Assembly: GCA_002292285.1 (NCBI GenBank)
Contig: DBBP01000026.1
Location: forward strand, 30,209 to 94,208
Source of the DNA: Proteobacteria bacterium UBA981
GTDB taxonomy: Bacteria; Pseudomonadota; Gammaproteobacteria; Ga0077536
Direction: 5' to 3'
DNA: 64,000 nucleotides
In this document: positions 352 to 51,535 of the stretch, one piece after another
How positions within the stretch are numbered: the stretch's first letter is position 1
Layout of the letters: each line of letters begins with the position of its first letter
Translations under genes and position numbers: made by a program
The notes under the pieces: model-generated
The model's input: only the letters and a program-made list of their open reading frames with translations
What the model was told of the DNA's origin: nothing
The model's database searches: none

Positions 352-405
352 CGCGACCAATTTATCGTCGCCTCAAGCCGGCGATACGCGGAGAACGAAA
401 GAACG

Positions 406-16531: not shown

Positions 16532-17596
16532 ATGGACCTAACGCGAAACGAACAGATAATTGTTTCTGATCCCGCGACTAACGATGGATTCACGGGTTGG
16601 AATGAATTTGTGCTCGCACAACCCGTGGTAAACCCCTTTCATCTCGCACAATGGCACGAAATCCTGAATCACGTGTTTCAGGTGCAGCCCCTTTACAGGA
16701 TGGGATGCGACGCCACCGGCCGGATTTTGGGAATCGTCCCGGCCTATTTCGCCTCAGGACTTTTCGCGACGCCGCAGGTCGCGACGTTGGATGGCGGCAT
16801 CCTTAGTGCAGATCAGCGCGTCGCCGATTCGCTCCACGCAGAGCTTTCCCTTTCGGCCGGTAATCTAGGCGCACGCCACGTCATGCTAAAAGGCGGAGCA
16901 GCAGCAACAGGCGAAGCTGTCGGCGGTAGCGTATTCAGCAAACGGATCTATCCGGTCGTCGATCTGTCCGCCGGTGTCGATTTCGTTACCCAACGACTGA
17001 ATAAGAAGATGAGGTATCAAATAAAGAAAAGTCAGGCGCTCGGGCTCGAAGCCGTGCAGGCAGACCAGGTACCCCATAGTTTCTACGCTATCTTCGCCCG
17101 TACCCAGAGAGATCTCGGTACGCCGGTGGTTTCTCGAAAATTTTTCGATTCGATGAATGCCGTACTGTCTCCACTGTTGAACTTTACCGGTCTCATGCAT
17201 CACGGGCGCCTCGTCGCGGGTCTTGTTGGAGTGAGCCTCGGTGATACTTACTACAGTCTGTACGCCGCGACAGACCGAGAATACCAGCACAACTATGCGA
17301 ACTATCTCCTCTACCTCAGGGTTATGGAATGGGCCTGCGAAAGGCAGCTCGGTAAGTTTAATATGGGCAGAAGTTCCCCCGGGACCGGCGCCTACCGTTA
17401 TAAGACCAAATGGCGTCCTGTTGATATCGAAGCGCTGTACCGCTGCGATTTTGTGACTCGACGAAACAGGCCAAAGGATTCCGCGATTCTGGAACCGGCG
17501 TCAAACTCAATCGCAGTAAAAGTCTGGAAGCGAATGCCACTGACCGTTACGAACGTTCTGGGGCCGTCGCTGAGAAGCAGGCTTCCGTTTGGCTAA
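16532..17596 (+). CDS. FemAB-family / GNAT-fold (BioF2-like) acyl- or aminoacyl-transferase-like protein
   Basis: 354 aa. The C-terminal half resembles FemAB/Acetyltransf_6 family members (…YYSLYAATDREYQHNYANYLLYLRVMEWACERQLGKFNMGRSSPGTGAYRYKTKW…). Confidence 0.6.
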   Translation: MDLTRNEQIIVSDPATNDGFTGWNEFVLAQPVVNPFHLAQWHEILNHVFQVQPLYRMGCDATGRILGIVPAYFASGLFATPQVATLDGGILSADQRVADSLHAELSLSAGNLGARHVMLKGGAAATGEAVGGSVFSKRIYPVVDLSAGVDFVTQRLNKKMRYQIKKSQALGLEAVQADQVPHSFYAIFARTQRDLGTPVVSRKFFDSMNAVLSPLLNFTGLMHHGRLVAGLVGVSLGDTYYSLYAATDREYQHNYANYLLYLRVMEWACERQLGKFNMGRSSPGTGAYRYKTKWRPVDIEALYRCDFVTRRNRPKDSAILEPASNSIAVKVWKRMPLTVTNVLGPSLRSRLPFG

Positions 17597-17851
17597 GCGA
17601 CTAGAGTGTTGCTAGCAAGGTGAACGCTTGAGCTTAGAAGCGGTGCTCGGTACTTCGAGCGCTTGTACAGATTCGGCTCCAAGGCGGTCATATATTGGAT
17701 AATCAGCGCGGCCAGCTACAGTGAGAAAGGAAAGCTATCATTCAATCTTCAGGTCTTTAGCTTGAGCGTACTTCGGCTGTTACCGCCGACGGCCACGCCA
17801 ATCCCGGTTCGGGCGATAGCTGCTGCGATTGCTGCAGACCAGCGCAGTTTG

Positions 17852-18970
17852 ATGAAATTCAAGCGCGCGTTGACGAACAATTACAGGGTTGTTGATTGTC
17901 ACCTGGCCGCCAGCGCAAGGTTTGCTCTGTACATCCTTGTGCGTACGCTTCACGAGACGAGGACCGATAGTGAGCGCGAGCAAATCATTATTCCCGCCTA
18001 TACCTGTCCATCTGTGGTGGCCGCAATTGTCGCGGCCCGAATGCGACCAATATTTTGTGAGATCAATCCAAGTACGCTAGCTTTTGATGAGCGGTCGCTC
18101 AGTAGTCATTTGGGCAGGAAAACGCTTGCTGTTATATGCGTACACCAGTTCGGGATTCCACACAGGCTGGACACGATAGCGGAACAAATCCGAAACGCTG
18201 GTGCCTACCTGGTCGAAGATGCGGCGCAAGCTATGGGCAGTACTGTGCACGGCCAGGCTGCGGGTACTGTCGGAGATTTCGGGTTGTTCAGTTTCGGTCC
18301 CGGTAAGCCGCTGGCACTGGCAGGTGGAGGTGCTATTACAGTTAACTCAAACGTAGCACGGGACCAGATATCACAGGTTTGGGCGGGCATAACCGAGGGC
18401 ACGCGCATGCGGTCGCTGTTCTCGGCATTCCGCTACGCGGCCCTCGGATTAATTACTCAGCCACTAAGCTGGCGACTGGTACACGTCAACGGTCCGACCC
18501 AGGCGGCGGCATCTGCCGCTGACGACTTGGGTGAGCGCCTCGGTATGGTCCCTTCCCAAGCTGCGGCGGGGTCGTTGTTGCTCGCTGATTTGGATGGCTA
18601 TAACTCGGACAGGCGGCAGACTGCTTTGCGGCTCAAGGGAATCTTATCGGAGCATAAGTGGGTAACAATTCCAGAAACTCCGCAGTCTTCTCCTGACGAT
18701 GCCAAGCCCATGATTCCGATATACCTGCGTTTGCCGGTTATCGTCGCTGATGAGCAAAGAAAGCGGCAGTTGGTCGCAAAGCTATGGCGCGCGGGAATTC
18801 ATCCCGGGACCATGTACGGCAGGTCGCTTGACGATGTTTATCCGCGATATTCGACACACGAGAATCCTGCGGCGTGCCATGTCGCGAGTAATTTGATTAC
18901 GCTACCGACACACCATCATGTTGGGCATGAGGACGTTGAAAAGATTGAGCAGGTGTTTCGATCTGTATGA
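17852..18970 (+). CDS. DegT/DnrJ/EryC1/StrS-family PLP-dependent sugar aminotransferase
   Basis: Motifs IIIPAYTCPSVVAAI, VHQFGIPHRLDTIAEQ...YLVEDAAQAMGS, DFGLFSFGPGKPLALAGGGAI (PLP Lys). The maximal ORF starts at 17663, but the first 63 codons look non-coding. The Met at 17852 gives a typical about 372-aa DegT. Confidence 0.8.
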   Translation: MKFKRALTNNYRVVDCHLAASARFALYILVRTLHETRTDSEREQIIIPAYTCPSVVAAIVAARMRPIFCEINPSTLAFDERSLSSHLGRKTLAVICVHQFGIPHRLDTIAEQIRNAGAYLVEDAAQAMGSTVHGQAAGTVGDFGLFSFGPGKPLALAGGGAITVNSNVARDQISQVWAGITEGTRMRSLFSAFRYAALGLITQPLSWRLVHVNGPTQAAASAADDLGERLGMVPSQAAAGSLLLADLDGYNSDRRQTALRLKGILSEHKWVTIPETPQSSPDDAKPMIPIYLRLPVIVADEQRKRQLVAKLWRAGIHPGTMYGRSLDDVYPRYSTHENPAACHVASNLITLPTHHHVGHEDVEKIEQVFRSV

Positions 18971-19045
18971 CGGTGCGGATCCGCGGCCCCGGATCCTGAT
19001 TGCCTATTTGCACCGCTTTTCGCGAATGAGAGTTTAACTTGTCAG

Positions 19046-20137
19046 TTATTCGCGGACGGGTTTCGAGCTGAACTGACGGATTAACAGAAGGGCCACAACG
19101 GCACAGGCGAACTTAAATAACGTGCCAATCAAAAAGATCAGGTGCGTATGCACCGCCAGAACGCCGGCGTCCGCTTCGCTGTATCCCAGCAAGATAAGGG
19201 CGTATAGCCAACCGACTTCGTGTGTGCCGATATTCGCGACAGCACGTATGGGTAGCACGCTGATTGGCAACTGTAACGCGAACACAACAGCACACAGCGC
19301 GAAACTCACGGTTTGATCGAGCGCCTTTATGACGAAAAAAAAGCCAGCCACAAGGACAGCAATACTGAGTAGCGACAAAAACGTGGCGTTGTAGTAAGTG
19401 CGTGGCTTAACAATGCTGACTGCGGTACGTAAAAATTGGTTGGCAAAAGCACGCAAAGCGTCGAAGTATCGGGAGACGCCCGGCAACGACGCACGGGAGG
19501 AATCTTCTGCAGAGGCTGTCTCCTGATGGCCATTGATTCGTTGCCTTACCAACCCGTTCAGGGCCGAACTGTAATGTAACCCCAGCGGCACGAAGAGTAC
19601 GACGAGACAAACTACGATCCCGGCGATTGATAGTGAGTGCGGGAGGACCGCAACAAAGAACGAGCCGGCAACAAGAAAGCAAATGGTATAGATGCTCAGT
19701 TCTATGAAGCGATAAACGAAAAGTGCAGACGTCGCGGCCCCCATTTCGATACCGTTCCATCTCTTTAACAGCCATATCAATACGGGTTCGCCAACCCAAC
19801 CGGGCAACAGATCCCTGACCGTGGCCTGCGTGAACAGCGTGCCGAGTACTCGATGTGGCGCATCTAAAGACAACATCAAGTGCAGGCGAATGGCGCGGAT
19901 GGCGGTAAAAACGATAATCGTAAGCAGATAGCCTGTTAAATAAGTCCAGTCGAGCGTGAATTCTGCAAGTTGTTCCAGGGACAAATCGGTTTCCCGAATG
20001 AACAACGCCAAAAGACCGAAACCAAATAACGACCCGGCCAGCAAATGCCGCAGCGTTTTTGAACGTACTCCTGGCTCGTTAGCGTTTGCCAGCTTGGCTT
20101 GGGAGCCTTCGTATTTTTTGGAGATTGGCAATTTCAC
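19046..20137 (-). CDS. Flippase-like membrane protein (lysylphosphatidylglycerol-synthase TM-region / UPF0104 family)
   Basis: Multi-TM protein (GSLFGFGLLALF..., IAGIVVCLVVLFVPLGL..., FALCAVVFALQLPISVLPIRAVANIGTHEVGWLYALILLGY). The maximal ORF reaches 20293 but would overlap the upstream gene by 111 nt. An in-frame GTG at 20137 is a plausible start, but the start is uncertain. Confidence 0.6.
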   Translation of the reverse strand: MKLPISKKYEGSQAKLANANEPGVRSKTLRHLLAGSLFGFGLLALFIRETDLSLEQLAEFTLDWTYLTGYLLTIIVFTAIRAIRLHLMLSLDAPHRVLGTLFTQATVRDLLPGWVGEPVLIWLLKRWNGIEMGAATSALFVYRFIELSIYTICFLVAGSFFVAVLPHSLSIAGIVVCLVVLFVPLGLHYSSALNGLVRQRINGHQETASAEDSSRASLPGVSRYFDALRAFANQFLRTAVSIVKPRTYYNATFLSLLSIAVLVAGFFFVIKALDQTVSFALCAVVFALQLPISVLPIRAVANIGTHEVGWLYALILLGYSEADAGVLAVHTHLIFLIGTLFKFACAVVALLLIRQFSSKPVRE

Positions 20138-20181
20138 GTTTTTACTGTCGCCCCGGGCAGGACCCAGGCTACGTTTACGGC

Positions 20182-21525
20182 CTAGGTAACCAAGCCTTGA
20201 GAAAGTCGCTCGGCAGCGTCGCGGCCCTGGCGGATCGCGGTGTGTGTGCCTCGATAATCCGGATAAACTTGCGCCTGCGTTGCGATTAGGCAATTCGCCA
20301 TCGGCAATTCGGGTGGCGGAACGCTCTCACCATATTTTTTCAATATCGCGGGCTGCGCGTCGGCCGCTCGCCACGTGTGCGCATCGATGACCCAGTCGGC
20401 GTCAAAATCGGCGAACATTTTTTCCAGGTGAGCGAGTCCATACGCGATGTAGGCGTCGTCGTCCATGTCGTAGGCTTCCATTCCGGGCGCTGTACTTTGT
20501 GACAGATAAATGATGTGTTCGCCGTTGTATTCTGATGGTGGTCGGAATTGCGTGTGCTCAATGACACCGACAAAAGGAAAGGCCAGATCCCGGTTTGACA
20601 GCCAGTAACAATTAGACAGCGAACGCTTTGACCGAATAATGATTCCGCGCGAATCAAGATAGGCAATCGCGTTGAACGCATCCAGGTTCTGCTGCGGGAG
20701 CGTGTGGGCTAACAGACGTGCTGCCTCAGGTAGCGGAGTCGTAATAATCATGCCATCAAAGGCATGGGCGCTACCGTCGACTTGCAATGTTATCGAAGTA
20801 TTGGCTGACGGGTCTGCTCTGACCAGCTCTGCGCGGGTCTGTTTTCTAATAACGCCGTTTTGAGCAAGAATGTGCGCCTCAATATCATCGAACAATGCAG
20901 AAAACCCACCCTCGTAGTAGGACGATGTCGAGCCCTTCTCACTACGTCCCTTGCGGGCCTTATTACTTTGCAATTTCTGCCACACCCACACCACAGAAAT
21001 CTCGTCTGCGTAGTTTCCGAACCTTGAAACCAATAACTGCTTCCAAAATTTTTCGTAAACATTGTGGTTTCCGTATTTCGTGAACCAGTCCTTGACCGAA
21101 TAGTCGTCTATCGTACGCCAATCGGTTACCGCGCCGAGCTTCCAGATGCCGAAAGCCATGCGCGCCGATTCGGTGAGCGATAAATCTGTATAGCGGAAAT
21201 GATCTAAAGGGTTACGTGTTCGCCAAACGGAATCACGAAAGTAGAATCCATGCTCCATGGAAATGCTGAACTCTTTGGCTTTCAGTCCGAGTACGTCAAG
21301 CAGCCATTCGAAGTTCTCGTCGCCGGCATACCATTGATGGTAGAACTTTTCGAGCCTGTAAGCGCCAGTATCGAAACTTGATGCAAGGCCACCGAGCTCT
21401 GGCTGACTCTCAAAAATCGTGACGCCAATTCCTTTCTCCAATAGCGAAAGGGCTGCGGCGGCACCGCAGAATCCGCCGCCGATGATAGCCACCTGCGGAG
21501 TGGAGTTACTTCGAGGTGCTGTCAT
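20182..21525 (-). CDS. FAD/NAD(P)-binding oxidoreductase (amine-oxidase / protoporphyrinogen-oxidase / UDP-galactopyranose-mutase-like fold)
   Basis: N-terminal dinucleotide-binding motif VAIIGGGFCGAAAALSL...VTIFES...LGG. 447 aa. Confidence 0.7.
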   Translation of the reverse strand: MTAPRSNSTPQVAIIGGGFCGAAAALSLLEKGIGVTIFESQPELGGLASSFDTGAYRLEKFYHQWYAGDENFEWLLDVLGLKAKEFSISMEHGFYFRDSVWRTRNPLDHFRYTDLSLTESARMAFGIWKLGAVTDWRTIDDYSVKDWFTKYGNHNVYEKFWKQLLVSRFGNYADEISVVWVWQKLQSNKARKGRSEKGSTSSYYEGGFSALFDDIEAHILAQNGVIRKQTRAELVRADPSANTSITLQVDGSAHAFDGMIITTPLPEAARLLAHTLPQQNLDAFNAIAYLDSRGIIIRSKRSLSNCYWLSNRDLAFPFVGVIEHTQFRPPSEYNGEHIIYLSQSTAPGMEAYDMDDDAYIAYGLAHLEKMFADFDADWVIDAHTWRAADAQPAILKKYGESVPPPELPMANCLIATQAQVYPDYRGTHTAIRQGRDAAERLSQGLVT

Positions 21526-21648
21526 GCTGTTTTAACTTAAGCGTTTCGGAAAGCATTGTGTCGCCCGGGAACGTTTGCCGCGCGGAAGCGAACATCGGTG
21601 GTCCGTCCGATGTGCGTTTAGCTCGGCGCTCAGAGGTCGGTAAGCCAC

Positions 21649-22449
21649 TCAGTATTCGAAACCGTAATGCCTGGCTTCGGCGGCGCAAATTTTCATGATG
21701 CTGTTTGAATCAAGAACTGGGCCAGCCGCTCTATGTTGGTCAAGCGTAGGGTTCTCGCGTCGTACGTTAATTGAAGTTTCTGAGATACGCTCGGGGTCGA
21801 GTCCGAGATGTTCGACCATATGCCTGGCCAGTTCGACTTTGACGCCTCGCTCGAAAAACAAATCTTCATAGCGGATTGTAAGGCTGGGTTCGGACGAAGA
21901 TGCTATAAACTCGCGAATTCGTGCATTGCGGTATACCCAACGCCACGCAAATCGCTCTGCTTCAGACCACCGACGCCAATCTGGATTCCCGAATTTTGGA
22001 CGGTCACGTGCAAATGGAAGGATTGGGACAAGTGACCGACGCCAGCTATAGCTGCCAAAGCCTATTGACGAGCGTACCCACGCCACCGGGTGCCGAATGA
22101 GATGAATAAGTGCAGTCGGTTTCACGACCGACAGGCGGCTGCCCATGTCAACAATAAAAGGATTGATTTCAACCAACAGGTCTTGATTGCTGCTATTCTG
22201 CAACCAGCTTTCGCGGGAGCTTTTAAACCAGTTTGTCGCAAGTTGAAGCCCCGGACGAGACACGCTGGGCGGGCATTGAGTGGCTATGTTGTTGAGTATC
22301 CTCAAAATACGTGAGGGCTCGCGCTCTTGGGCTACAACTATTTCAGGATAGAGCTGTTCCAGCAGTTTGGTTATGAACGTCGAGCCGGTTCGCCCGGCGG
22401 TCAGGACGTGTGCGTATCGTGAACCGGAATATCTGGCAATTTCTGACAT
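21649..22449 (-). CDS. PAPS-dependent sulfotransferase-like protein
   Basis: 266 aa. 5'-PSB-like P-loop LTAGRTGSTFITKLL near the N-terminus and a 3'-PB-like LIRHPVAWVRSS segment. Confidence 0.65.
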   Translation of the reverse strand: MSEIARYSGSRYAHVLTAGRTGSTFITKLLEQLYPEIVVAQEREPSRILRILNNIATQCPPSVSRPGLQLATNWFKSSRESWLQNSSNQDLLVEINPFIVDMGSRLSVVKPTALIHLIRHPVAWVRSSIGFGSYSWRRSLVPILPFARDRPKFGNPDWRRWSEAERFAWRWVYRNARIREFIASSSEPSLTIRYEDLFFERGVKVELARHMVEHLGLDPERISETSINVRRENPTLDQHRAAGPVLDSNSIMKICAAEARHYGFEY

Positions 22450-22727: not shown

Positions 22728-23549
22728 ATGGCTCAATACTCTCTCAACCAATACGTAGATTTGTTACGCGCGCCTGAAGGCGACAACGGTCCATTGATTC
22801 TAGACCGCGACACCCTGCGGACCGAAGATGGAACAACAAGTTTCCCGGTCGTCGACGGCATCCCACAAATGCTGGGCGCGGAATTTGATCGCGAGGTGGC
22901 GGCGCTCTATGAGGGAAATGCCGCAAAGGGCGGATTCGAGCACTCGACCGTTGGGTATAAGTTCCCGAGTCATTACACACGAATGATCAAGGCGTTCTCC
23001 GTCTTATGCGCACGCTTCGACGAGAACTCAATCGTCGCAGATATTGGTTGTGGACATGGTCAGATGACCAGCGCTATGGCTAAGAAGTTACCGGTGTTCG
23101 GCGTGGATCTATCGAACAATATGTTGCATGAGGCCAAGGTAAACGGTTTGATCCCGTTGCGCGGAGATGCCTCCGCGCTGCCGTTTCGCGACGGCGTGCT
23201 TGACGGTGTCGTTTCGGCTGAAGTTGTGCAGCATTTGCCGGACCTGTACGAGATTTTTGCAGAGATGGCTCGCGTGACCCGTCCTGGCGCAACCATACTG
23301 TTGTCGACATTGAATCGGAAATCGATCGTCAGACGCACAAATCGGAAGCTTCGCGGGTTGGACCTGATCGGACCGGCTCGCCTTCGCGCTATCGAAGACT
23401 TTACCGCTGTGCTGGAGGGCTTCCCGCTTCGTATCGAAGCCGTCTGCTGGGTCATGTCGCCGCTTCCTTTCAACCCGGTTGTGGAAAATGTCAACTTTCC
23501 GCTGAGTGCGCTCGCGCAGAACTATGTATTGTCGATCCGGCGCGCTTAA
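22728..23549 (+). CDS. Class I SAM-dependent methyltransferase with N-terminal Trm112-like (FPVVDGIPQML) segment
   Basis: Motif I VADIGCGHGQMT, post-I acidic residue (VFGVDLS), motif LPFRDGVLDGVVSAEVVQHLPD. The N-terminal about 50 aa resemble the Trm112/YcaR-type motif. Confidence 0.8.
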   Translation: MAQYSLNQYVDLLRAPEGDNGPLILDRDTLRTEDGTTSFPVVDGIPQMLGAEFDREVAALYEGNAAKGGFEHSTVGYKFPSHYTRMIKAFSVLCARFDENSIVADIGCGHGQMTSAMAKKLPVFGVDLSNNMLHEAKVNGLIPLRGDASALPFRDGVLDGVVSAEVVQHLPDLYEIFAEMARVTRPGATILLSTLNRKSIVRRTNRKLRGLDLIGPARLRAIEDFTAVLEGFPLRIEAVCWVMSPLPFNPVVENVNFPLSALAQNYVLSIRRA

Positions 23550-23628: not shown

Positions 23629-25515
23629 ATGAATAGCGACGCCGAATTCAGCGTTCCGTATCCGCCCACCAGTCGCTCATACTGGATTGGCGGTGTGTTT
23701 ATATTCTTGGTTTCGGTCGTGGTGTACGCGCCCGGAAATTTTTTCGTTTCCTGGGACCTTTCAACATACCTGGCGTGCGCCCGCAATCTCCTCGACGGCG
23801 CCGGTTTCGTCGATCCTGTTGGACAAGCGGTCGAGAGTCGACTGGGGTTCATAGTGATCCTCGCCGGCGCACTGATCGCTGGCGGGGAATCCCTCGCTAC
23901 GATCGCAGCTGTCGAGACTCTCGGCAGTGCGCTTTTTGTCACGGCCATGTTTCTGCTCGCCTATCGTCTGTTTGGGCCGTTAATCGCTTTTGTGGCCAGC
24001 GGCCTGTTTTTACTATCCCCGGATTGGAATTTTTGGTTACCCCGGCATCTGGACCCGTTCTGGCCCGGGTTCGTACTTTGCAGTCTCGTGGCTTTGCTGA
24101 ACACCAAAGGACGCTTCGAGTGGATGGTTGGAATAGTCGCGGCCTGCTGGCTCGTGTTGGCTTATTCAATCAAGGAAACCGCGATACTTTTTCTACTCGG
24201 GTATGGCGTGCTGCTGTATCTCGGTGCGCTCCCTGGGACAAAAATTCGAACTTGGTGGTTTGTCGGTTCGGTTGTGTTTGCTGCGAGTGTCTTCATTGGC
24301 CTGCGCATATTCGCCGAGGCGGCACCTGTTAACCCGTACGCGGGCGGCCGTCTGAATGTGATTGCAGAACTCTTCAACGACCGGAGCCTCGTTGGCGGCA
24401 TTCTGGCCAGTGCGCAGTGGGCAGCAGTGGGCATCGTGCGCGCGATGTTCGGTTTTTTTGGTGACAGCCGTCTGTTGACAGTGATGCCTTTGTTGCCTGT
24501 GTTCGCCGTCGGATTTGTCATGCACTGCGTGCTGGCACTCAGGGGCCGACCCAGCGACCAGATCATCGTAGTGATGTTCATCGCCTATTTGCCGTTCATG
24601 GCGTTGATCGGCCAGATGAATTTTCGACCGTCCCAGAATCTCTTCTCTGTCGCGCTGATGTATATCTCTATTGCTGCGCTGATCGTTCGTGCAGGGGGCT
24701 TGCTGACTTCCCGACGCTGGTGCCAAGTCTTGAGTGTGGCCATCCTCGCGCTGTTATGCGCGGCATGGCAGGTGGACAACGGCGTTCTAACGATTTCCAA
24801 AAGCTCAGCGCGTAATTATTTTTGGCGAGCATGTTGTGCCCGGCCGGGCACACAGGCATTTGCGCCGCGACTTCGCGGTACGGCGGTCGCAGCTTGGGTG
24901 AACGACAATATTCCACCTGGTGAAACCATCGTAATCGGTGACGCGCCGACGCAGCATGGCATTAATTTCCTGAACGGTCAGCGCAATAAAATCGCTTTCC
25001 CGCCGATTTTCAATCTGACTTTTTCCGGGGCCTGGGCGGATTCTCCACTTGCGCCGCCGGGCTCTGCAAACTACGTCGTCGCGGCAGTCTGGCCCGGGAA
25101 AATATTTCCGCGGCCAGTATTTTTGCTTGAACCGGATTGGTTCATCGAACGCATGGCAGAGTTACAGGCCACCACGATCATATTGTCCAGCGTTGGCATC
25201 GACCCGGCGATCGCACATTGGTTACGTGAAGGTGCTGGGCTCACGCCATTGGCGACAATTGCCAGGCGCAAACGCCATTACGACGTGTACGACATCTCGC
25301 CCTTGCTATCGCGCGAATTTTCGAGATCTCGACAATTGATAGTCAATGACGATTTTTTGCAATACCTGCGGAGAGTCAAAGAAGAGCACCCGGAACATTG
25401 GCAGTGGTATTTGGACGAGCTGTTTGACGACAGATTGAATCTTGACGCCAAAGTTGCGGAGCAGGTGGCGGCGGGTGAATTACCGCCCGAGTTCGCCGTA
25501 CTACCTCGCGAGTAG
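23629..25515 (+). CDS. GT-C fold membrane glycosyltransferase (ArnT/PMT-like, GT39/GT83-type; polyprenyl-phosphate-sugar dependent)
   Basis: 628 aa. Ten or more N-terminal TM helices with an ArnT/PMT_2-like pattern (SWDLSTYLACARNLLDGAGF; ...LLSPDWNFWLPRH...), and a C-terminal soluble domain of about 230 aa. Confidence 0.6.
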   Translation: MNSDAEFSVPYPPTSRSYWIGGVFIFLVSVVVYAPGNFFVSWDLSTYLACARNLLDGAGFVDPVGQAVESRLGFIVILAGALIAGGESLATIAAVETLGSALFVTAMFLLAYRLFGPLIAFVASGLFLLSPDWNFWLPRHLDPFWPGFVLCSLVALLNTKGRFEWMVGIVAACWLVLAYSIKETAILFLLGYGVLLYLGALPGTKIRTWWFVGSVVFAASVFIGLRIFAEAAPVNPYAGGRLNVIAELFNDRSLVGGILASAQWAAVGIVRAMFGFFGDSRLLTVMPLLPVFAVGFVMHCVLALRGRPSDQIIVVMFIAYLPFMALIGQMNFRPSQNLFSVALMYISIAALIVRAGGLLTSRRWCQVLSVAILALLCAAWQVDNGVLTISKSSARNYFWRACCARPGTQAFAPRLRGTAVAAWVNDNIPPGETIVIGDAPTQHGINFLNGQRNKIAFPPIFNLTFSGAWADSPLAPPGSANYVVAAVWPGKIFPRPVFLLEPDWFIERMAELQATTIILSSVGIDPAIAHWLREGAGLTPLATIARRKRHYDVYDISPLLSREFSRSRQLIVNDDFLQYLRRVKEEHPEHWQWYLDELFDDRLNLDAKVAEQVAAGELPPEFAVLPRE

Positions 25516-25620: not shown

Positions 25621-27666
25621 ATGCAACTGAATCGGCTGGCGATTGAACAAAAAAAGCGACGTGAGGACCGGAGCGAACTAGGGCCAAGCGGGCTCTTGAG
25701 CCTCACAATCAAGCAGAGATGCTGGAAATATCGTATCGGGCTGCGAGTTTGTTCCGTAATAGAATTAATCCGTGATCAACGATTATTTCATTTGTCCAGG
25801 CGGAACTACCGAGTGCAAATAAACAGGGACATTCACGGCGTCGTATGTTGGTCGCTCGTAGTGCTGACGTTACTACTGGTACCGATATTCGCGCTGACTA
25901 CGGGGCCGGATTCCGTATTTTACCTGGAGAAGGGGCTCGACCTATATTTGGGGCGAGGATACGACCATCCGACACGGGGCCCGATTTTCGCGAGCATACT
26001 CGCGACCGCTTTCTCGGTACTGGGGCCCTCCGCGATTGTCGCCACAATCGTTGTTCGCACGTTTTTTCTTCTCAATGTATTAATGGTGTGGCTTTTAGCC
26101 AGACAGTTGTTCGGGGCTGCGGCCGCGAACTGCAGCGTGCTGTTGCTATTGAGTGCCGCGTTCGTGCATGAGTCGACCGGGACGATCGGGCTTGATGCGG
26201 TCTATCCCTTGTTCGTTCTAATCGGGATTTACTTTTCCGTCGTGAGCTTCGAACACGAACGTATCTGGCCAGCTATCGCTGCCGGAGCGAGCTTCGGAAT
26301 CGCGGTCCTTACAAAGGAACTCGCCTTACTCCACGTTGTCTTCCCGTTTGCTTATCTAGTGTTCGACGCGACCCTCAGAAACTCACGGAGGGCCTGGGGC
26401 AATGCTGCGGTCCAATATCTGGTCTGTGCTTTGGCGGTCACACCTTGGCTAATATTTCTCGCGCTGGGCGACGACGGCGTGGCCACCATGGTGGGGAAGG
26501 GCGGCCCCAAGAATCTGCATAAGCTTGCCAGCCTTGACGGGAATTCGTTGATCGATTCAATCAATTTTTATCTCAGCGGCATGCCGCAGTTTTTCCAGCG
26601 CTACGTAGCGCGCGAGTCCGCCATTTGGCCACTGTGGGCGGTTGCATGGGTCTATATGGGCTTCCTCGCTGTGCGCGAGCGCTCGGCGCGCGCTTTGGTC
26701 GTGGCGATTGCTTTGTTCATACCGGTTATGGTCGCCGAAGGGCACGTCTCCATCCGCATAGGACAGAACCACATAGCGTACTGTGTGTCGGTTATCGCAA
26801 GTGGGGCGTTATTGGGCAGAATAATTGACTACGGGTCGGCTCGTGTCTGGCCCAGGTTCGCGCAGGTGTGCCTGTATGTCATGGTCGTGGCGATCTCTAT
26901 CTATCAATTGACTACTGGTCGCGACAACGCACTGAATCGCATTAAGGGCAATTCGACTAGCGCGTTTTTGCTGACTCAAGGGACACTACCGGCCTGGCAA
27001 GTAAAAGGTACCCTCAACGATGATTCGCGGCGCGCCGCAGAATGGGTTTCCGCCAATCTGCCTGAAGGCGAACCGATAGTTGCCGATTATTTGTTGTTCC
27101 GTTCGATGTACGTGCAGTCAGGAGGTCGTTACCCGATCTACAAGTTCCCGTATGACAACCTCGACGTACAGTTGTCGTCGCAGCCGTCAGCGGCGTTTAA
27201 GGATGGCGACAACGAAGGACCGTTATTGTTTCTTTGGAGCCATGTCCGCAGGGATCGATTTTGCAATTGGCAAAGTTCACCATGCATCCTTTTTCACACG
27301 TTTTACGAAGGAACGTTTGCGAAATTTATGGCTGAGCGCGGCGCCCGCTACGTGGTTCTGGGTGCACGCACCTGGTTTCTCAGAGAGTACTTCGACGCTC
27401 ACCCCGCAGCGACACTGAAGCAAGTCATATCGGAGCGGATTCGCATTTACTCCGTTGATGTCGATCAGTCGGTTGGGGAATTCCCGCTGCGCGTAGGCGA
27501 GGAGGTACCGCGGTTGCTTAACAAGGTGGTCTCAGAAGTTCCTGCCGCCGTGCCTTGGTTCGACGAGACAGTACTGCATCAGACACTTCATCTTGAATTG
27601 ATCATTGCTGATCTTGTCAACGGTCCATCGCGCATCGCGCTTTTTCCTAAAGTACCGCCGCTCTAG
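25621..27666 (+). CDS. GT-C fold membrane glycosyltransferase (ArnT/PMT-like), second tandem copy
   Basis: 681 aa with the same architecture as the preceding gene (LGRGYDHPTRGPIFASILA..., multiple TM helices, large C-terminal soluble domain). The first 64 codons look non-coding; an in-frame GTG at 25813 preceded by AGGCGGA is a likely start. Confidence 0.6.
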   Translation: MQLNRLAIEQKKRREDRSELGPSGLLSLTIKQRCWKYRIGLRVCSVIELIRDQRLFHLSRRNYRVQINRDIHGVVCWSLVVLTLLLVPIFALTTGPDSVFYLEKGLDLYLGRGYDHPTRGPIFASILATAFSVLGPSAIVATIVVRTFFLLNVLMVWLLARQLFGAAAANCSVLLLLSAAFVHESTGTIGLDAVYPLFVLIGIYFSVVSFEHERIWPAIAAGASFGIAVLTKELALLHVVFPFAYLVFDATLRNSRRAWGNAAVQYLVCALAVTPWLIFLALGDDGVATMVGKGGPKNLHKLASLDGNSLIDSINFYLSGMPQFFQRYVARESAIWPLWAVAWVYMGFLAVRERSARALVVAIALFIPVMVAEGHVSIRIGQNHIAYCVSVIASGALLGRIIDYGSARVWPRFAQVCLYVMVVAISIYQLTTGRDNALNRIKGNSTSAFLLTQGTLPAWQVKGTLNDDSRRAAEWVSANLPEGEPIVADYLLFRSMYVQSGGRYPIYKFPYDNLDVQLSSQPSAAFKDGDNEGPLLFLWSHVRRDRFCNWQSSPCILFHTFYEGTFAKFMAERGARYVVLGARTWFLREYFDAHPAATLKQVISERIRIYSVDVDQSVGEFPLRVGEEVPRLLNKVVSEVPAAVPWFDETVLHQTLHLELIIADLVNGPSRIALFPKVPPL

Positions 27667-27673
27667 GTCATGG

Positions 27674-28675
27674 TCAGGGTCCGCGTACCCCCTCAGGCGC
27701 CTGCAGATTAAGCTTCAACTCGCTCGCATAATCCGACATAGGTTGGAATTCGAAGTCGTGCAGCAGGCGACAAAGTTTTGTATGCGCCGATTTTAACCCC
27801 GAGTAGTGGGACAGACGTTCTCGCGCAGTAGTGCATGACGGGCGCGGGTGATCAGGATCAAATTCCCAAGGATGAAAATAGAACACGACCGGCTCTCCGG
27901 CCCTGTTTTTAGAAGCTGTAATGCGTTTAACGAGAGAATAGGCGAGATTACGAAACCACACGCCGCCCGAAAACGGCAAGCGCTTCGCCCCTAGCGCAAC
28001 CGTTGTTATTGGTATTTCCACGAGAGAACCGCTGCCCGCGCCAACCACCGACGGGTAGGGGTTTGCTCCGGGCATGCCGTACAACGGGGTACGCACTGGA
28101 AAGACACTCGAATCATAGGATAGGCCACGATCTTGCAGCGCTTGCCAGAACCATGTTGTGTCGTCGCTAACCGAGGTATAGGCCGCCCGATAACCTTGAA
28201 TCGGCGTATCGACCACCGCCCGAACCGCTTCGTAATTTCGCTCTAAATCTTCGCGAAACTCGATTTCCGACATTTTGTCGACCCGCTGATGTCGGTTCCC
28301 ATGAAGGCCGATCTCATGACCGTGGCGGGCAATCTCTCGAAGTACATCCGGGGTTAATCTGGCGATCTCCCCAACGACAAAAAAGGTCGCTTTGATGCCG
28401 TACTGTTGAAATGTTTCGAGCAGGGTGCTGGTTTGGCGTTCTATGCGACTTTCGAATGTCGGCCAACGAGCGTATTGCACCGAGGTGCTCGTCAGCCCCT
28501 GGTACCACTCCTCGAAATCAACGCTGATGCAGTTGCTGATCATGCATCGAAGTATCTCATTTTTAGCACAAAGGCGTTCGGTGAGAATTCGCCCGTTCTT
28601 GTTTGGATGACGGAAATTCACAACAATCTGTCCGGCAGCCGGGGTCACGCTTGGCGTGCCATCGGGCCGCGACAA
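27674..28675 (-). CDS. Polysaccharide deacetylase (NodB-homology/CE4 family)
   Basis: Motifs ISVDFEEWYQ, ...EIARHGHEIGLHGNRHQRVDKMS..., LVEIPITT. 333 aa. An internal Met at about 28546 is an alternative start. Confidence 0.75.
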   Translation of the reverse strand: MSRPDGTPSVTPAAGQIVVNFRHPNKNGRILTERLCAKNEILRCMISNCISVDFEEWYQGLTSTSVQYARWPTFESRIERQTSTLLETFQQYGIKATFFVVGEIARLTPDVLREIARHGHEIGLHGNRHQRVDKMSEIEFREDLERNYEAVRAVVDTPIQGYRAAYTSVSDDTTWFWQALQDRGLSYDSSVFPVRTPLYGMPGANPYPSVVGAGSGSLVEIPITTVALGAKRLPFSGGVWFRNLAYSLVKRITASKNRAGEPVVFYFHPWEFDPDHPRPSCTTARERLSHYSGLKSAHTKLCRLLHDFEFQPMSDYASELKLNLQAPEGVRGP

Positions 28676-29025: not shown

Positions 29026-30126
29026 GTGGCGAACCACTCACCATGGCGTCAGCGTGGCTGCACAACTCATATGTTTTTTGATTTCTCAAATTTGCGCGCT
29101 TTCGGCTTTGGTGTCGGGGTGTTGCTATTTATCGGCATATTCATCGAGCTGAGGCGGCATCGAACCCGGCGGGTAAGTCCAGCCCCGGTTATTGTTTTCT
29201 CGCTCGTTCTAATGGCCGTTGCCCTTAATCCAGGGTTTGTCGATGCCCCCGCCAGATTTTTGGGATTTGAGGGAATTCCGCGCGGACGGCTACTCGCTTT
29301 GTTGCTGGTATCGGCGTTGCTCGTGTGGCCGGTGGCGATGCGTAACCGGAGTAAGATCAGCCAACTCCACACAGACCTGCTGGCGACTATCCGGCAGTTC
29401 GCCCTCCTCAATTTTCGCTCTACCTATGGTCAGTCGATCGATGCCGGCGCGATTTGGGTCGTCATACCTGTATTTAACGAAGTACAAAATATTCCTTCTG
29501 TGGTGCGGGAATTACCGGCGGTCGTAGGCGATGCGCCGGTGATTGTGCTCATCGTCGATGACGGCAGCTCAGATCAGTCGAGCGCCGTCGCTACGCAGGA
29601 GGGTGCCCGGGTCGCGCGATTACCACTGAATTGCGGCGGCGGTGTTGCGCTGCATGTTGGCTTTGAACTGGCCGTAAGTTTCGACGCCAGGCTTGTCGTT
29701 ACCATGGACGGAGACGGCCAGCATGATCCGCATCAGGTTAAGGACCTCGTCGAACCGATATTATCCGGCGAGGCAGACTTCGTTATCGGCTCGCGCATAC
29801 TCGGAGTGAACAATTCGCCCAATCGAACGAGAGCGGTGGGCATCCGCGTGTTTAGCCGGCTGATAAACCTCTTGACCGGCACGAGAATTACCGATTGTTC
29901 AAGCGGATTTCGCGCGATTTCTCTTGATGTTTTGACGGCAGTCAAGCTGATCGAGCCGCAGTACCACACGCCAGAACTCATAATCGCCACGGTTAAGCGC
30001 AACATGAATCTGGTCAAAGTGCCGATTCAAATTCGCCCGCGATTGTCCGGCGAAAGCAAGAAAGGCGCGAATCTCAAATATGGTTTCATGTTCGCACGCT
30101 CAATCGTCCGTGCCTGGCTTCGCTGA
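29026..30126 (+). CDS. GT2-family polyprenyl-phosphate sugar synthase (DPM1/GtrB/ArnC-like) with about 130-aa N-terminal two-TM extension
   Basis: Catalytic domain from about residue 145: IPVFNEVQNI...VIVLIVDDGSSDQS...TMDGDGQHDP (DxD/DAD-type motifs). Two hydrophobic helices precede it. Confidence 0.8.
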   Translation: MANHSPWRQRGCTTHMFFDFSNLRAFGFGVGVLLFIGIFIELRRHRTRRVSPAPVIVFSLVLMAVALNPGFVDAPARFLGFEGIPRGRLLALLLVSALLVWPVAMRNRSKISQLHTDLLATIRQFALLNFRSTYGQSIDAGAIWVVIPVFNEVQNIPSVVRELPAVVGDAPVIVLIVDDGSSDQSSAVATQEGARVARLPLNCGGGVALHVGFELAVSFDARLVVTMDGDGQHDPHQVKDLVEPILSGEADFVIGSRILGVNNSPNRTRAVGIRVFSRLINLLTGTRITDCSSGFRAISLDVLTAVKLIEPQYHTPELIIATVKRNMNLVKVPIQIRPRLSGESKKGANLKYGFMFARSIVRAWLR

Positions 30127-30590
30127 CCGGTGAGCTGCCGGCTTGTTCATTGGGATGCGTGGCAGCGTCGGAGCATCAGCGCGCGGATCGTACCCGATGG
30201 AGCCTTCTCAGCGACCGCGTACCGATCACCCCCTTGAACATTGAAATCGGCAGTCACTGACGAGAAAACTGAGCGGGTATTGGTGTCTTTGGCCGCCCCC
30301 CACATGGTATTATCCCAGTCGCGCGACGAATCCTTACCCTCTGGACGCGGCCGTATTAGCGCATCAGCCAAATTCTTTGTCGGGCGGTGCCCGGTTAGGG
30401 CGTTCACCGTCGTGATACGTGCGTTATTCGTAGTACCGGGGCGCCCGATTCTTGCGCGTTACAACCACCGCTAAGCGTCTTAATGCCGCGCAGCAAGCGT
30501 GCGGCGTTCAACCTGATCGAAATCGACTGCCGCAGATGCAACATCGAAAGCTCAATTCAACCGCCAGCAGCCGGGGTCACATACCAAACC

Positions 30591-31676
30591 ATGAGTGGAG
30601 AACCAATGCTCAGTAATTATTTTGCTGGTGCAAGAATCGCCGTGACTGGCGCTGCGGGGACCGTCGGGTCTGAACTGGTCCGCCAGTTGCTTGACCTACC
30701 CGTTGCTGAAGTGCGTGCTTTGGATAATAACGAAAATGGATTGTTCTTTTTAGAGCAAAACTATCGTAGCGAACCCAGATTGCATGCTTTCCTGTGCGAT
30801 GTCCGAGAGCGCGACAAGCTCGATCGGATGCTGCCGGGTATGGACTATCTTTTTCATGTCGCCGCACTCAAACACGTGCCTTTGTGCGAGCGCAGTCCAA
30901 CCGAAGCCGTGCGTACAAATATCCTGGGTGTCGAGAACGTCATCCGCGCGTCAATTAACGCCGGGGTTCGCAAGGTGTTGTTTACAAGCTCGGACAAAGC
31001 GGTCAATCCGACCAATGTGATGGGCACATCGAAATTAATGGGGGAACGGCTCATTACAGCGGCCAACGCCTTGACCCAGACTGAGCACGGACCAATTTTC
31101 TCAGCGACTCGTTTTGGCAATGTTGCCGGTTCAGCCGGTTCAGTGGTCCCGTTGTTCTGCCATCAAATTGCCACCAACAAGAACGTCACGCTGACGCATC
31201 GCGAGATGACGCGCTTTCTGATGACGCTCCACGAGGCAGTGCGCCTGGTGTTGCTGTCGATGACGCTCGCCAAAGGCGGTGAGGTATTTGTGACCAAAAT
31301 GCCTGTCGCCCGCATCGAAGATATCGCGCAGGTGTTAGTCGATACCGTGGGCCCTGCCTGCGGGCGCGAACCGGATTCGATCACGATCGAGGAGGTTGGG
31401 CCGCGTCCCGGTGAAAAGATGTACGAAGAGCTGGTGAGTGACGAGGAAGTCCGGCGTACTTTCGAAATTGGCGATCTCTTTACGGTCTTGCCGGCATTCC
31501 ACAACATCTATAACAACATCAGTTTCGAATATCCCGGGTATGAGAAAAAGCCGATCGACCGGGTTTATAACTCCGAGGCTGAAACAGCCATGAGCGTTGA
31601 CGATTTGCGTGAATTTATGACCCTGCCTGGCGTGTTACCCGACGATGTCCGGGCGAAGCTGCGCCTGATTGATTAG
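30591..31676 (+). CDS. Short-chain CapD/PseB/FnlA-like UDP-HexNAc 4,6-dehydratase (Polysacc_synt_2 family)
   Basis: ARIAVTGAAGTVGSEL (Rossmann), ...YLFHVAALKHVPLCERSP... (YxxxK-region equivalent), SSDKAVNPTNVMGTSKLMGERL. The maximal ORF is from 30483; the Met at 30591 gives about 361 aa. Confidence 0.75.
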   Translation: MSGEPMLSNYFAGARIAVTGAAGTVGSELVRQLLDLPVAEVRALDNNENGLFFLEQNYRSEPRLHAFLCDVRERDKLDRMLPGMDYLFHVAALKHVPLCERSPTEAVRTNILGVENVIRASINAGVRKVLFTSSDKAVNPTNVMGTSKLMGERLITAANALTQTEHGPIFSATRFGNVAGSAGSVVPLFCHQIATNKNVTLTHREMTRFLMTLHEAVRLVLLSMTLAKGGEVFVTKMPVARIEDIAQVLVDTVGPACGREPDSITIEEVGPRPGEKMYEELVSDEEVRRTFEIGDLFTVLPAFHNIYNNISFEYPGYEKKPIDRVYNSEAETAMSVDDLREFMTLPGVLPDDVRAKLRLID

Positions 31677-31688
31677 GAACCACAAGGG

Positions 31689-32837
31689 ATGAAAATACTG
31701 ATACTGGGCGGTGACGGCTATCTCGGTTGGCCGACCGCAATGCACTTGAGCGCCCACGGGCACGACGTCGCTGTTGTCGACAATTATCTGCGGCGCCGAA
31801 TGAGTCTTGAGCAGGACGTTGGGCCGCTTTTCCCGGTTCCCAATCTGCATGAGCGTGCCAAGCTGTGGCGAGAAAAAAGTGGCAACGATGTTCGCGTGTT
31901 TGTGGGTGACATGAACGACTGGGATTTCGTTGCGTCGACGTTCACCGAATTCACGCCGGAAGTGATCGTGCATTACGCAGAGCAACCCTCGGCACCGTAT
32001 TCGATGCTCAATCGCGAGACAGCTACCTTAACCCTGCATAACAATCTCGGCGTGACCGCAAATACAATCTTTGCCGTTCGGGAGTTTGCGCCAGACGCCC
32101 ACATCGTCAAGCTCGGCACGATGGGTGAATACGGCACGCCGAACATCGATATCGAGGAGGGCTGGATCGATCTTGAGCACAAAGGCCGTAAAGACCGTTT
32201 CCTGTTCCCGCGCCAGGCCGGCAGCCTGTACCACACCACCAAAATCCAGGATACCGACTTGCTGTGGTTCTATGTGCGCGTCTGGGGACTGCGCGTGACT
32301 GACCTCATGCAAGGACCAGTTTACGGGCTTAGAACTTACGAAAACGACGGCGAGGAAGCGTTGCTGCCGTTTTTTAACTACGACGAAATTTTCGGCACCG
32401 TTGTTAATCGCTTCATTGTACAAGCGGTCGCCGGTTATCCGCTGACGGTTTACGGCAAGGGCGGACAGACGCGCGGTTATCTGAACATCAAGGACACGCT
32501 CAATTGTATTCGCCTGTCGATTGAGAACCCGGCCGATCGCGGTGAGCTGCGCGTGTTTAACCAATTCACCGAAACGTTTTCAGTGAATGAGTTAGCCGAG
32601 CGTGTGCAACAGTGTGGCTCGCGCAACGGCATCGAGGTCAAAATAGAAGCGCTCGAGAATCCGCGTAAGGAGCTTGAAGAGCACTATTACAACCCGGCCC
32701 ACACAGGCCTGCTTGAGCTGGGTCTTGAACCCCATTTCCTCACTGATGACGTGCTGGACGATATGCTGCAAACGGTGCTTCGATATAAAGGCGCCATTCG
32801 GAACGATGTTATTTTTCGTGGCGTCAAGTGGAACTGA
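31689..32837 (+). CDS. sqdB: UDP-sulfoquinovose synthase (SQD1/SqdB/Agl3 family)
   Basis: 382 aa, collinear with the recalled SQD1 sequence throughout: MKILILGGDGYLGW, EQPSAPYSM, HNN..GT.N..FA, KLGTMGEYGTPNIDIEEG, LYHTTK, TVYGKGGQTRGYL, RVFNQFTETFSVNELA, EEHYYN.AHT.L.ELGLEPH. Confidence 0.9.
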   Translation: MKILILGGDGYLGWPTAMHLSAHGHDVAVVDNYLRRRMSLEQDVGPLFPVPNLHERAKLWREKSGNDVRVFVGDMNDWDFVASTFTEFTPEVIVHYAEQPSAPYSMLNRETATLTLHNNLGVTANTIFAVREFAPDAHIVKLGTMGEYGTPNIDIEEGWIDLEHKGRKDRFLFPRQAGSLYHTTKIQDTDLLWFYVRVWGLRVTDLMQGPVYGLRTYENDGEEALLPFFNYDEIFGTVVNRFIVQAVAGYPLTVYGKGGQTRGYLNIKDTLNCIRLSIENPADRGELRVFNQFTETFSVNELAERVQQCGSRNGIEVKIEALENPRKELEEHYYNPAHTGLLELGLEPHFLTDDVLDDMLQTVLRYKGAIRNDVIFRGVKWN

Positions 32838-47195: not shown

Positions 47196-47240
47196 ACCGT
47201 GTTACGCCACAAGTTATGCGCGAGCGTGCCGCGCGCAGGT

Positions 47241-51523: not shown

Positions 51524-51535
51524 GCATCTGAATCG

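Follow-up and report, generated by a model that had tools for sequence, protein, structure and literature searches.

Why should a flavin adenine dinucleotide (FAD)-dependent oxidoreductase be encoded between a sulfotransferase and a flippase-like membrane protein? The question is raised by three genes in a stretch of 64,000 nucleotides (hereafter the window) from Proteobacteria bacterium UBA981, contig DBBP01000026.1 of assembly GCA_002292285.1. An initial annotation of this DNA had described them as an operon encoding a sulfotransferase-like protein of the type that uses 3'-phosphoadenosine-5'-phosphosulfate (PAPS), an oxidoreductase and a flippase-like protein, and had left the oxidoreductase unexplained. 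Judging from the sequence and its relatives, we give a probability of roughly 0.6 to the reading that the trio is an operon within a larger, polyprenyl-phosphate-based module of GtrABC/Arn-like type, which would decorate a surface glycan outside the cytoplasm.

The listing of open reading frames (ORFs) and our reading of the sequence bear out three co-oriented minus-strand genes with the coordinates of Table 1, and all three identities (sulfotransferase, FAD oxidoreductase of amine-oxidase fold, and flippase-like protein of the LPG-synthase-TM type) proved right. As to the operon, the trio exists and its order is conserved, but the functional unit is a module of ~16 kb and not three genes. In its longest form the third ORF runs from a TTG at 20293 to 19046 and overlaps the flavoenzyme gene by 112 nt; an alignment with seven relatives placed the start of the UPF0104 protein at the GTG at 20137, giving 363 amino acids (aa). 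The gaps then measure 123 nt between sulfotransferase and flavoenzyme and about 44 nt between flavoenzyme and UPF0104 protein, and a scan for promoter and terminator consensus sequences inside the trio gave no signal exceeding shuffled controls. The trio is bordered by a convergent DegT gene downstream and a divergent methyltransferase gene upstream. The stop codons of the convergent DegT and UPF0104 genes enclose a 7-bp GC-rich inverted repeat (18977-18996, GGATCCG-n6-CGGATCC), which has no T-run and was not called in the terminator scan. The order sulfotransferase-flavoenzyme-UPF0104 recurs in the orthologous metagenomic contigs L001, L006 and L007. Since the encoded proteins are only 45-56% identical, the arrangement is conserved and not a chance juxtaposition.

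We based the assignment of the 266-aa sulfotransferase on a family profile of 99 sequences (A2) and not on the single protein. Close relatives are rare: 8 clusters were found among 5.8 billion proteins, none of them annotated, and the profile of these 8 sequences reached at best E=0.064 against the PDB. An exhaustive HMMER search with the eight-cluster alignment yielded 916 representatives with E<=1e-3, of which 285 reached E<=1e-10; the majority are ~260 aa long. Among solved structures the A2 profile finds sulfotransferases only, namely OLS sulfotransferase (ST; 4gox, 6.5e-12), CurM ST (2.7e-9), TPST1 (5.6e-8) and TPST2 (~6e-6), and 77 of the 99 family members individually match Pfam Sulfotransfer_3 (PF13469) at E<=0.01, the best at 3.2e-14. 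Six positions are invariant in the A2 alignment (R20, R119, S127, W171, E195 and N233), and G19, T21, G22, E42, H116 and P121 are conserved in >=90% of the sequences. The P-loop lies within residues 16-30 (LTAGRTGSTFITKLL), where the 5'-phosphosulfate-binding (5'-PSB) loop A18-G-R20-T-G-S-T24 aligns with PRSGTT of TPST1 and PRSGST of CurM and OLS. The 3'-phosphate-binding (3'-PB) motif R-x7-S reads R119-HPVAWVR-S127 and aligns with VRDGRASVHS of TPST1 and VRHPYAVIES of OLS. The PAPS-type P-loop protein of the initial annotation thus retains its 5'-PSB and 3'-PB residues, R20, R119 and S127 being invariant in all 99 sequences. Furthermore, E42, ~21 residues past the 5'-PSB Arg, falls on the second Glu of the TPST1 sequence CGEE, the TPST-type catalytic Glu. 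An AF2 model of the protein (pLDDT 81) has OLS ST and TPST2 as its top Foldseek neighbours in the PDB, with TM-scores of about 0.5. From profile and model we conclude that the protein is a predicted PAPS-type sulfotransferase of a divergent, unnamed subfamily.

The public JGI annotation starts this protein (P0001, 204 aa; L098/L099) 62 codons late and loses positions 22264-22449, so that the AGRTGST loop with its 5'-PSB function is omitted; the long N-terminus is kept in all orthologues. By sequence, neither the sulfotransferase nor the flavoenzyme has a signal peptide or a transmembrane segment, and both should therefore act before flipping.

The second gene product matches NCBIfam NF005560 (364 bits, cut-off 252, residues 11-443) and, over its full length, Pfam Amino_oxidase (69.6 bits), and carries an N-terminal GxGxxG FAD fold (IIGGGFCGAAAA, residues 13-24). 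The best Foldseek neighbours of its AF2 model (pLDDT 84.8) are CgoX, protoporphyrinogen oxidase (PPOX) and plant phytoene desaturase (PDS), with TM-scores of 0.75-0.79, followed by amine oxidases; by sequence, none of the solved structures is close, the best being PPOX (E 8e-8), matched over the N-terminal 180 residues. The amine-oxidase fold predicted initially therefore stands, while the likeness to UDP-galactopyranose mutase (UGM) does not: the protein is PPOX/PDS-like, and of the two hidden Markov models proposed for telling the alternatives apart, Amino_oxidase matched and GLF did not. UGM itself was rejected as an identity, as GLF (PF03275) gave no match at E<=0.01 and UGM ranked 48 among the fold matches. 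The NF005560 family is large, with hundreds of full-length matches at ~38% identity. In GTDB data with one genome per species, relatives occur in 472 stretches from Pseudomonadota, Gemmatimonadota, Acidobacteriota, Latescibacterota, Nitrospirales, Cyanobacteria, Verrucomicrobiota and others. No characterised member of NF005560/PRK07233 was found in the searchable literature. Enzymes of the amine-oxidase fold are known to oxidise C-N bonds, to desaturate or saturate C-C bonds in hydrophobic substrates, and to catalyse isomerisations.

The third protein is matched by PF03706 with 69.6 bits (cut-off 33.4) over profile positions 2-296 of 302, and by TIGR00374 with 40.2, marginally under the cut-off of 43.2; no solved structure matched it by sequence. 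The family (UPF0104, COG0392 or 'PplT') comprises predicted flippases, among them GpgF from the operon for GlcN-phosphatidylglycerol; MprF contains a flippase domain of this kind, and the archaeal dolichol-phosphate-hexose enzyme AglD has it as its C-terminal domain (PMC12713373, PMC5898192, bioRxiv 10.1101/2022.03.11.483950). A second, unrelated pair, an AglJ/PpgS-like glycosyltransferase of family 2 (GT2, 255 aa) and an LPG_synthase_TM protein (331 aa, 165 bits), lies at 50756-52531; this copy is only 26% identical to that at 19046-20137, the match covering its N-terminal part. The genome holds at least two GT2/UPF0104 systems.

The relatives of the sulfotransferase show which genes accompany it. 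A UPF0104 gene lies within about 4 kb in 8 of 8 informative contexts and is adjacent in most. The contig with a sulfotransferase 48% identical to ours, L001, reproduces the whole module gene for gene, the gene resembling SqdB included, while L006 and L007 show the trio between a methyltransferase and a DegT gene. More distant relatives are without a flavoenzyme gene and retain the other partners: L005, taken from a complete genome, carries a deacetylase, a methyltransferase, a GT2, two GT-C genes, the sulfotransferase, UPF0104 and DegT; L013 reads methyltransferase-sulfotransferase-UPF0104, a gene of unclear nature, then Acetyltransf_6-methyltransferase-GT2-methyltransferase-GT-C; L097 has the sulfotransferase and an overlapping UPF0104 gene followed by a methyltransferase and a GT2; and L003 has UPF0104, sulfotransferase and a sugar N-formyltransferase. 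A methyltransferase adjoins the sulfotransferase in L001, L006, L013, L095/L096 and L097. We considered a 292-aa protein of L005 and L013 as a substitute for the flavoenzyme and rejected it, the two proteins not being homologous. Two gene fusions join the sulfotransferase to further components of the module. P0031 (L012:4278-6545) consists of a PMT_2-like GT-C membrane domain and a C-terminal sulfotransferase domain, in an operon [GT-C::ST]-UPF0104-GT2 in which the UPF0104 and GT2 genes overlap, and P0100 is a methyltransferase-sulfotransferase fusion. By crude hydropathy topology, Lys and Arg abound in the tail of P0031 past its last hydrophobic segment, which weakly suggests that its sulfotransferase domain is cytoplasmic. 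Scans of genome contigs and metagenome contigs returned no sulfotransferase relatives, and the broader alignments contained no segment of sufficient conservation for such a scan.

Some of these contigs hold neighbours of another kind. In L097, the sulfotransferase operon is directly preceded (256-3036) by genes for an alkyl sulfatase (Lactamase_B + Alkyl_sulf_dimr + Alkyl_sulf_C) and for a LysR regulator. In L001 (14648-18840) the module is flanked by MBOAT, acyl-carrier (PP-binding) and AMP-binding genes reminiscent of Dlt-type acylation, and an MBOAT gene stands beside the sulfotransferase in L005 (10804-13942); neither of these occurs in the module of the window.

The flavoenzyme tells a second story. 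We collected 80 loci from genomes of named species of many phyla and searched their ORFs with iterated profiles seeded from the window proteins. A GT2 lies within 4 kb in 59 of the 80 loci (the same number at 6 kb) and UPF0104 within 4 kb in 37; in 33 loci UPF0104 is directly adjacent on the same strand, upstream of the flavoenzyme in 32 of these. About 20 of the 80 have a large polytopic protein immediately downstream, and several of these proteins match PMT_2. Three sampled contigs read GT2-UPF0104-flavoenzyme(-PMT_2) with 4-nt gene overlaps, two of them set among genes for the core of lipopolysaccharide (LPS; heptosyltransferases, KdtA). DegT was seen at only one locus, extended short-chain dehydrogenases/reductases (SDRs) at 23/80, and a sulfotransferase relative at none of the 80. 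The conserved partners of the flavoenzyme are thus a GT2 and a flippase, usually in the order GT2-flippase-flavoenzyme, not the sulfotransferase. On these counts the flavoenzyme is a component of polyprenyl-phosphate-sugar cassettes in general, and its pairing with a sulfotransferase is specific to the small clade of the window. Furthermore, a small membrane protein of the GtrA family (PF04138, 70-88 bits), encoded just before the flavoenzyme gene, occupies the position of UPF0104, which is then missing, at five loci (L021, L031, L049, L073 and L080), and the two never occur together at any of the 80. This alternation is the best evidence that UPF0104 handles a polyprenyl-phosphate sugar here. 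Altogether, the gene context gives good support to the initial suggestion that the flippase-like protein handles a lipid-linked intermediate.

Pfam and NCBIfam scans of the neighbouring ORFs show that the trio is part of a module extending over about 16.5-32.8 kb of the window (Table 1). GT-C 1 is 47% identical to a 622-aa protein of L001 that bears PF13231, and 25% identical to GT-C 2. The GT2 is recognised by the models for AglJ, PpgS and Dol-P-hexose transferase (1e-21 to 1e-30), in each case under the equivalog cut-off, and would by homology be of the polyprenyl-phosphate sugar synthase type. A gene resembling the SqdB on which the initial annotation had built is indeed present: it matches NF041015 over its full length (455 bits, E 1.8e-136, under the cut-off of 575) and is conserved in the same position in L001 (1-339), where the first 113 aa are 79% identical. 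The module contains no GtrA-family flippase, UPF0104 holding that position, and no domains of ArnA (UDP-GlcA decarboxylase/formyltransferase) or ArnE/F were found among the scanned ORFs of the window. As far as the domain matches tell, the module has the parts of a GtrABC/Arn-type pathway, in which an amino sugar is made, loaded on polyprenyl phosphate, deacylated, flipped and moved on by a GT-C, plus a methyltransferase, a sulfotransferase and a flavoenzyme, its likeness to Arn being one of logic only.

Table 1. Genes of the trio and of the surrounding module (window positions; L numbers denote contigs with related loci)
Feature	Position	Strand	Remarks
FemAB-like Acetyltransf_6, probable N-acyl transferase for an amino sugar	16532..17596	+	conserved in L001 and L013
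DegT/ArnB-type sugar aminotransferase	17663..18970	+	same position in L001, L006 and L007; present in L005
UPF0104/PplT (LPG_synthase_TM) flippase-like membrane protein	20137..19046	-	PF03706; probable start GTG 20137
FAD-dependent PPOX/phytoene-desaturase-like oxidoreductase	21525..20182	-	447 aa; NCBIfam NF005560 'PRK07233'
Sulfotransferase	22449..21649	-	266 aa; divergent Sulfotransfer_3/TPST-CurM-like subfamily; soluble, predicted cytoplasmic
S-adenosylmethionine-dependent methyltransferase	22728..23549	+	divergent from the sulfotransferase; conserved partner
GT-C-type membrane glycosyltransferase 1	23629..25515	+	no Pfam match of its own; orthologue PMT_2
GT-C-type membrane glycosyltransferase 2, PMT_2/ArnT-like	25621..27666	+	PF13231 (52.3 bits), PF02366
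Polysaccharide deacetylase with DUF3473, ArnD/NaxD-like position	27674..28675	-	conserved in L001 and L005
DUF2304-GT2, polyprenyl-phosphate sugar synthase-like	29026..30126	+	AglJ, PpgS and Dol-P-hexose transferase models
PseB/FnlA-like UDP-GlcNAc 4,6-dehydratase	30483..31676	+	NCBIfam/Pfam scans
UDP-sulfoquinovose synthase-like SDR (SqdB/Agl3-like)	31689..32837	+	NF041015; directly after the PseB-like gene

Beyond the module, the window holds an AT3+SGNH O-acyltransferase (14041-16212), an amidotransferase of the XrtA/PEP-CTERM type (34118-36094; TIGR03108, under cut-off) and a CrtC-like lipocalin beside a MacB-type ABC pair (45999-50434). The FemAB-like and deacetylase genes of the module likewise match PEP-CTERM-associated models under their cut-offs, and these matches suggest that the window may be an XrtA-linked exopolysaccharide locus. 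Three ORFs of the polysaccharide region, 7463-9352, 11296-12333 and 12482-13741 (629, 345 and 419 aa), have no Pfam match or only marginal ones (weak PhyH, weak Glyco_trans_1_2). At 1002-3188, preceded by a hexapeptide acetyltransferase (406-1032), a 728-aa protein fuses a GFO_IDH_MocA oxidoreductase to a DegT aminotransferase, which we take to resemble the WbpB/WbpE pairing for 3-amino sugars.

We thus propose a pathway of five steps. Nucleotide-sugar enzymes (the PseB-like dehydratase, the DegT aminotransferase, the FemAB-like acyltransferase and the SqdB-like synthase) would supply an N-acylated sugar of the 4-amino-6-deoxy-N-acetylhexosamine (HexNAc) type and/or UDP-sulfoquinovose, and the AglJ/PpgS-like GT2 would load the sugar on polyprenyl phosphate at the inner face of the membrane. 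There, deacetylase, methyltransferase, PAPS-dependent sulfotransferase and PPOX/PDS-like flavoenzyme may tailor it in the cytoplasm. The UPF0104 protein, which stands where related cassettes have GtrA, would then flip the tailored lipid-linked sugar, and the two GT-C enzymes would move it to an acceptor, most likely an exopolysaccharide of the PEP-CTERM type or LPS. This scheme builds on four observations, namely the family membership of the proteins, their conserved synteny, the fused genes and the use of either UPF0104 or GtrA but never both, and on what is known of the GtrABC, Arn and PpgS/Rv3779 systems. From them we infer the order of the steps, a sulfate acceptor that is lipid-linked rather than nucleotide-linked, and whatever can be said of O- versus N-sulfation and of the identity of the acceptor glycan. 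That the glycan would be both sulfonated and sulfated, as proposed initially, is a chemical conjecture drawn from the genes, and one may speculate that a deacetylase beside a sulfotransferase recalls the logic of NDST. PAPS and FAD chemistry is cytoplasmic, which, together with the lack of signal peptides, fits the order of tailoring, flipping and transfer. In three-component systems, auxiliary enzymes act on undecaprenyl-phosphate-linked monosaccharides before export, SDR or DprE1/2 enzymes converting undecaprenyl- or decaprenyl-phosphate-ribofuranose (PMC11127046), and in Halobacterium a dolichol-phosphate-bound tetrasaccharide is sulfated by Agl30/Agl31 and methylated (PMC11980604). Because of these precedents, cytoplasmic tailoring of a lipid-linked sugar is credible.

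Several points weigh against the proposed polyprenyl-phosphate module. The contexts of the sulfotransferase are 8 independent informative loci obtained by exact-protein look-ups, a small number, and 18 of the 80 flavoenzyme loci show no partner gene by crude detection. Taken singly, the sulfotransferase of the window reaches only 18.4 bits (E 0.0027) against PF13469, whose cut-off is 27, and has no NCBIfam match. Of the catalytic residues Arg78, Glu99 and Lys158 of TPST2 (PMC10951654), Lys158 corresponds to Ile95 in our protein and to a hydrophobic position across the family profile, so that the catalytic set is not fully TPST-like; the family conserves E94 and N96 (E94-x-N96-P-F) instead. Genes for PAPS synthesis (cysC/cysDN/sat; APS kinase, ATP sulfurylase) were not found among the window ORFs of >=180 aa, and no biochemically studied protein exists in either the sulfotransferase or the flavoenzyme family. 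Finally, we know of no member of the amine-oxidase fold that oxidises a sugar hydroxyl, which keeps a polyprenyl-directed or isomerase role of the flavoenzyme alive beside the DprE1-like idea. By analogy, a DprE1-like redox reaction on the lipid-linked sugar may be its role, at somewhat less than even odds. Saturation or desaturation of the polyprenyl chain is rather unlikely, if worth keeping in mind, and both a mutase or isomerase activity and amine oxidation seem quite improbable.

The UPF0104 substrates characterised or proposed so far provide a further counterargument, being phospholipid or glycolipid head groups (MprF, GpgF, HexF) and not polyprenyl-phosphate sugars (PMC12713373; bioRxiv 10.1101/2022.03.11.483950). 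They lend weight to a different product: the GT2 and the tailoring enzymes would build a membrane glycolipid with sulfate (and sulfonate) groups, or a modified head group of a phospholipid, and UPF0104 would flip it to the outer leaflet in the manner suggested for MprF, GpgSDF and HexSDF, with the flavoenzyme acting on the lipid tail. The module does contain the same logic of synthase, deacetylase and flippase, and the closest structural relatives of the flavoenzyme act on hydrophobic membrane substrates. However, GT-C enzymes use polyprenyl-phosphate-linked donors, and two PMT_2-like GT-C transferases are conserved in the module, a GT-C being even fused to a sulfotransferase domain. The closest similarity of the GT2 is to polyprenyl-phosphate sugar synthases, and GtrA replaces UPF0104 in some flavoenzyme cassettes. 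We hence regard a glycolipid product as unlikely.

A role of the sulfotransferase in ordinary polysaccharide synthesis, on a nucleotide sugar or on the undecaprenyl-diphosphate-linked repeat unit of an exopolysaccharide whose genes lie elsewhere in the window, would render its adjacency to the other genes mechanistically meaningless. The window is indeed an extensive locus for polysaccharide synthesis, with numerous GT4/GT1-type transferases as well as PEP-CTERM/XrtA-associated markers, and sulfotransferases are known inside Wzx/Wzy clusters (PMC13390465, PMC11641403). This explanation has little chance, though, as the pairing with UPF0104 persists in all eight contexts down to ~23% identity, occurs in L003, L012 and L097 with no exopolysaccharide cluster around it, and is accompanied by fusions of the sulfotransferase to GT-C and to methyltransferase.

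The best profile and fold matches of the sulfotransferase, CurM and OLS, are activating enzymes, and a transient sulfate could by the same token turn a hydroxyl into a leaving group that is then eliminated or substituted, perhaps in concert with the flavoenzyme, to give a sulfate-free product. We consider this very unlikely, since most relatives lack a flavoenzyme or an obvious elimination partner and the similarity to the TPSTs, which leave sulfate in place, is comparable. Adenylate and deoxynucleoside kinases among the lower-ranked fold matches prompted the idea of a P-loop kinase for nucleotides or sugars, which for the 266-aa protein is scarcely credible and was rejected: the AGRTGST loop has no Walker-A Lys, the sequence profile and the family-wide Pfam matches find sulfotransferases only, and the fold ranking points to the same.

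Returning to the polyprenyl-phosphate module, each of its proteins belongs to a known superfamily, and its overall logic is that of the known three-component and Arn systems. In the searchable literature we found no description of a sulfotransferase subfamily dedicated to a system of three-component or Arn type, of UPF0104 as the flippase of one, or of the widespread NF005560 flavoenzyme as its fourth component. From comparative genomics we put forward, as a tentative proposal with the odds somewhat against it, an undescribed bacterial route for the sulfation and methylation of surface glycans, in which a dedicated PAPS sulfotransferase modifies a single polyprenyl-phosphate-linked sugar in the cytoplasm, UPF0104 flips it and GT-C attaches it, and in which the NF005560 flavoenzyme, a widespread 'fourth component' present in 472 or more species, would independently alter the lipid-linked intermediate before flipping. 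To our knowledge, reports of sulfated bacterial glycans are few, and the sulfotransferases behind them are poorly mapped. If the proposal is true, a sulfotransferase tied to a GT2/flippase/GT-C cassette would show how a charged PAPS-derived group could reach the periplasmic side, where no PAPS exists. The UPF0104/PplT proteins would gain a concrete polyprenyl-phosphate-sugar substrate, and the flavoenzyme family, large and as yet without a name ('PRK07233 hypothetical protein'), which occurs beside LPS and exopolysaccharide modification genes in hundreds of species, would gain a pathway context. Tailoring enzymes of this kind would be useful in glycoengineering and could account for unexplained surface-charge or phage-resistance phenotypes.

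With TPST1/2, CurM ST and OLS ST, the sulfotransferase shares the fold as predicted by AF2, the 5'-PSB Arg, the catalytic Glu ~21 residues on and the Arg...Ser of the 3'-PB site, yet it is only ~15% identical to them, lacks the Lys158 equivalent, presumably acts on a sugar, and belongs to a family with its own E94-x-N-P-F motif and FGSYxWRR insert. The flippase domain of MprF, GpgF, HexF and the C-terminal domain of AglD are of the same Pfam family as our UPF0104 protein and share its genetic coupling to a head-group-building transferase and a deacetylase; unlike them, it is coupled to GT-C enzymes and replaceable by GtrA in related cassettes, which points to a polyprenyl-phosphate sugar as its substrate. 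The role proposed for the flavoenzyme recalls DprE1/DprE2, which epimerise decaprenyl-phosphate-ribose, in that a flavoenzyme would act on a polyprenyl-phosphate-linked sugar in a GT-C-dependent pathway; DprE1, however, has the vanillyl-alcohol-oxidase fold and our flavoenzyme the amine-oxidase/PPOX fold, with an SDR partner nearby in only 23 of 80 loci.

Sulfation and methylation on a lipid carrier before flipping, as proposed here, are shared with Agl30/Agl31 of Halobacterium salinarum (PMC11980604), a system that differs in being archaeal, in using an oligosaccharide as substrate and in handing it to an oligosaccharyltransferase. The soluble Halobacterium enzyme VNG1057C is set apart by its description, the structural comparison in PMC11980604 pointing to sulfatases and suggesting a different family. 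The Arn system (PmrHFIJKLM), which places L-Ara4N on lipid A, and the galactosamine system PpgS/Rv3779 of M. tuberculosis have in common with the module a DegT aminotransferase, an N-acyl transferase, a GT2 loading undecaprenyl phosphate, a deacetylase-family enzyme and an ArnT-like PMT_2 GT-C. Compared with Arn, the module lacks the ArnA decarboxylase and ArnE/F, has two GT-C enzymes and extra sulfotransferase, methyltransferase, flavoenzyme and SqdB-like genes, and its sugar is probably a 6-deoxy-HexNAc derivative and not a pentose. GtrABC-type systems, including the pentofuranose systems of Kelly et al. 2024 (PMC11127046), likewise combine a GT2 polyprenyl-phosphate-sugar synthase, a flippase and GT-C transferases with cytoplasmic auxiliary enzymes that act on the lipid-linked monosaccharide before export, as we propose here. 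In those systems the flippase is GtrA and the auxiliaries are SDR or DprE1/2 epimerases, whereas in the module described here UPF0104/PplT takes the position of the flippase and the auxiliaries are a sulfotransferase, a methyltransferase, a deacetylase and a PPOX/PDS-like flavoenzyme.

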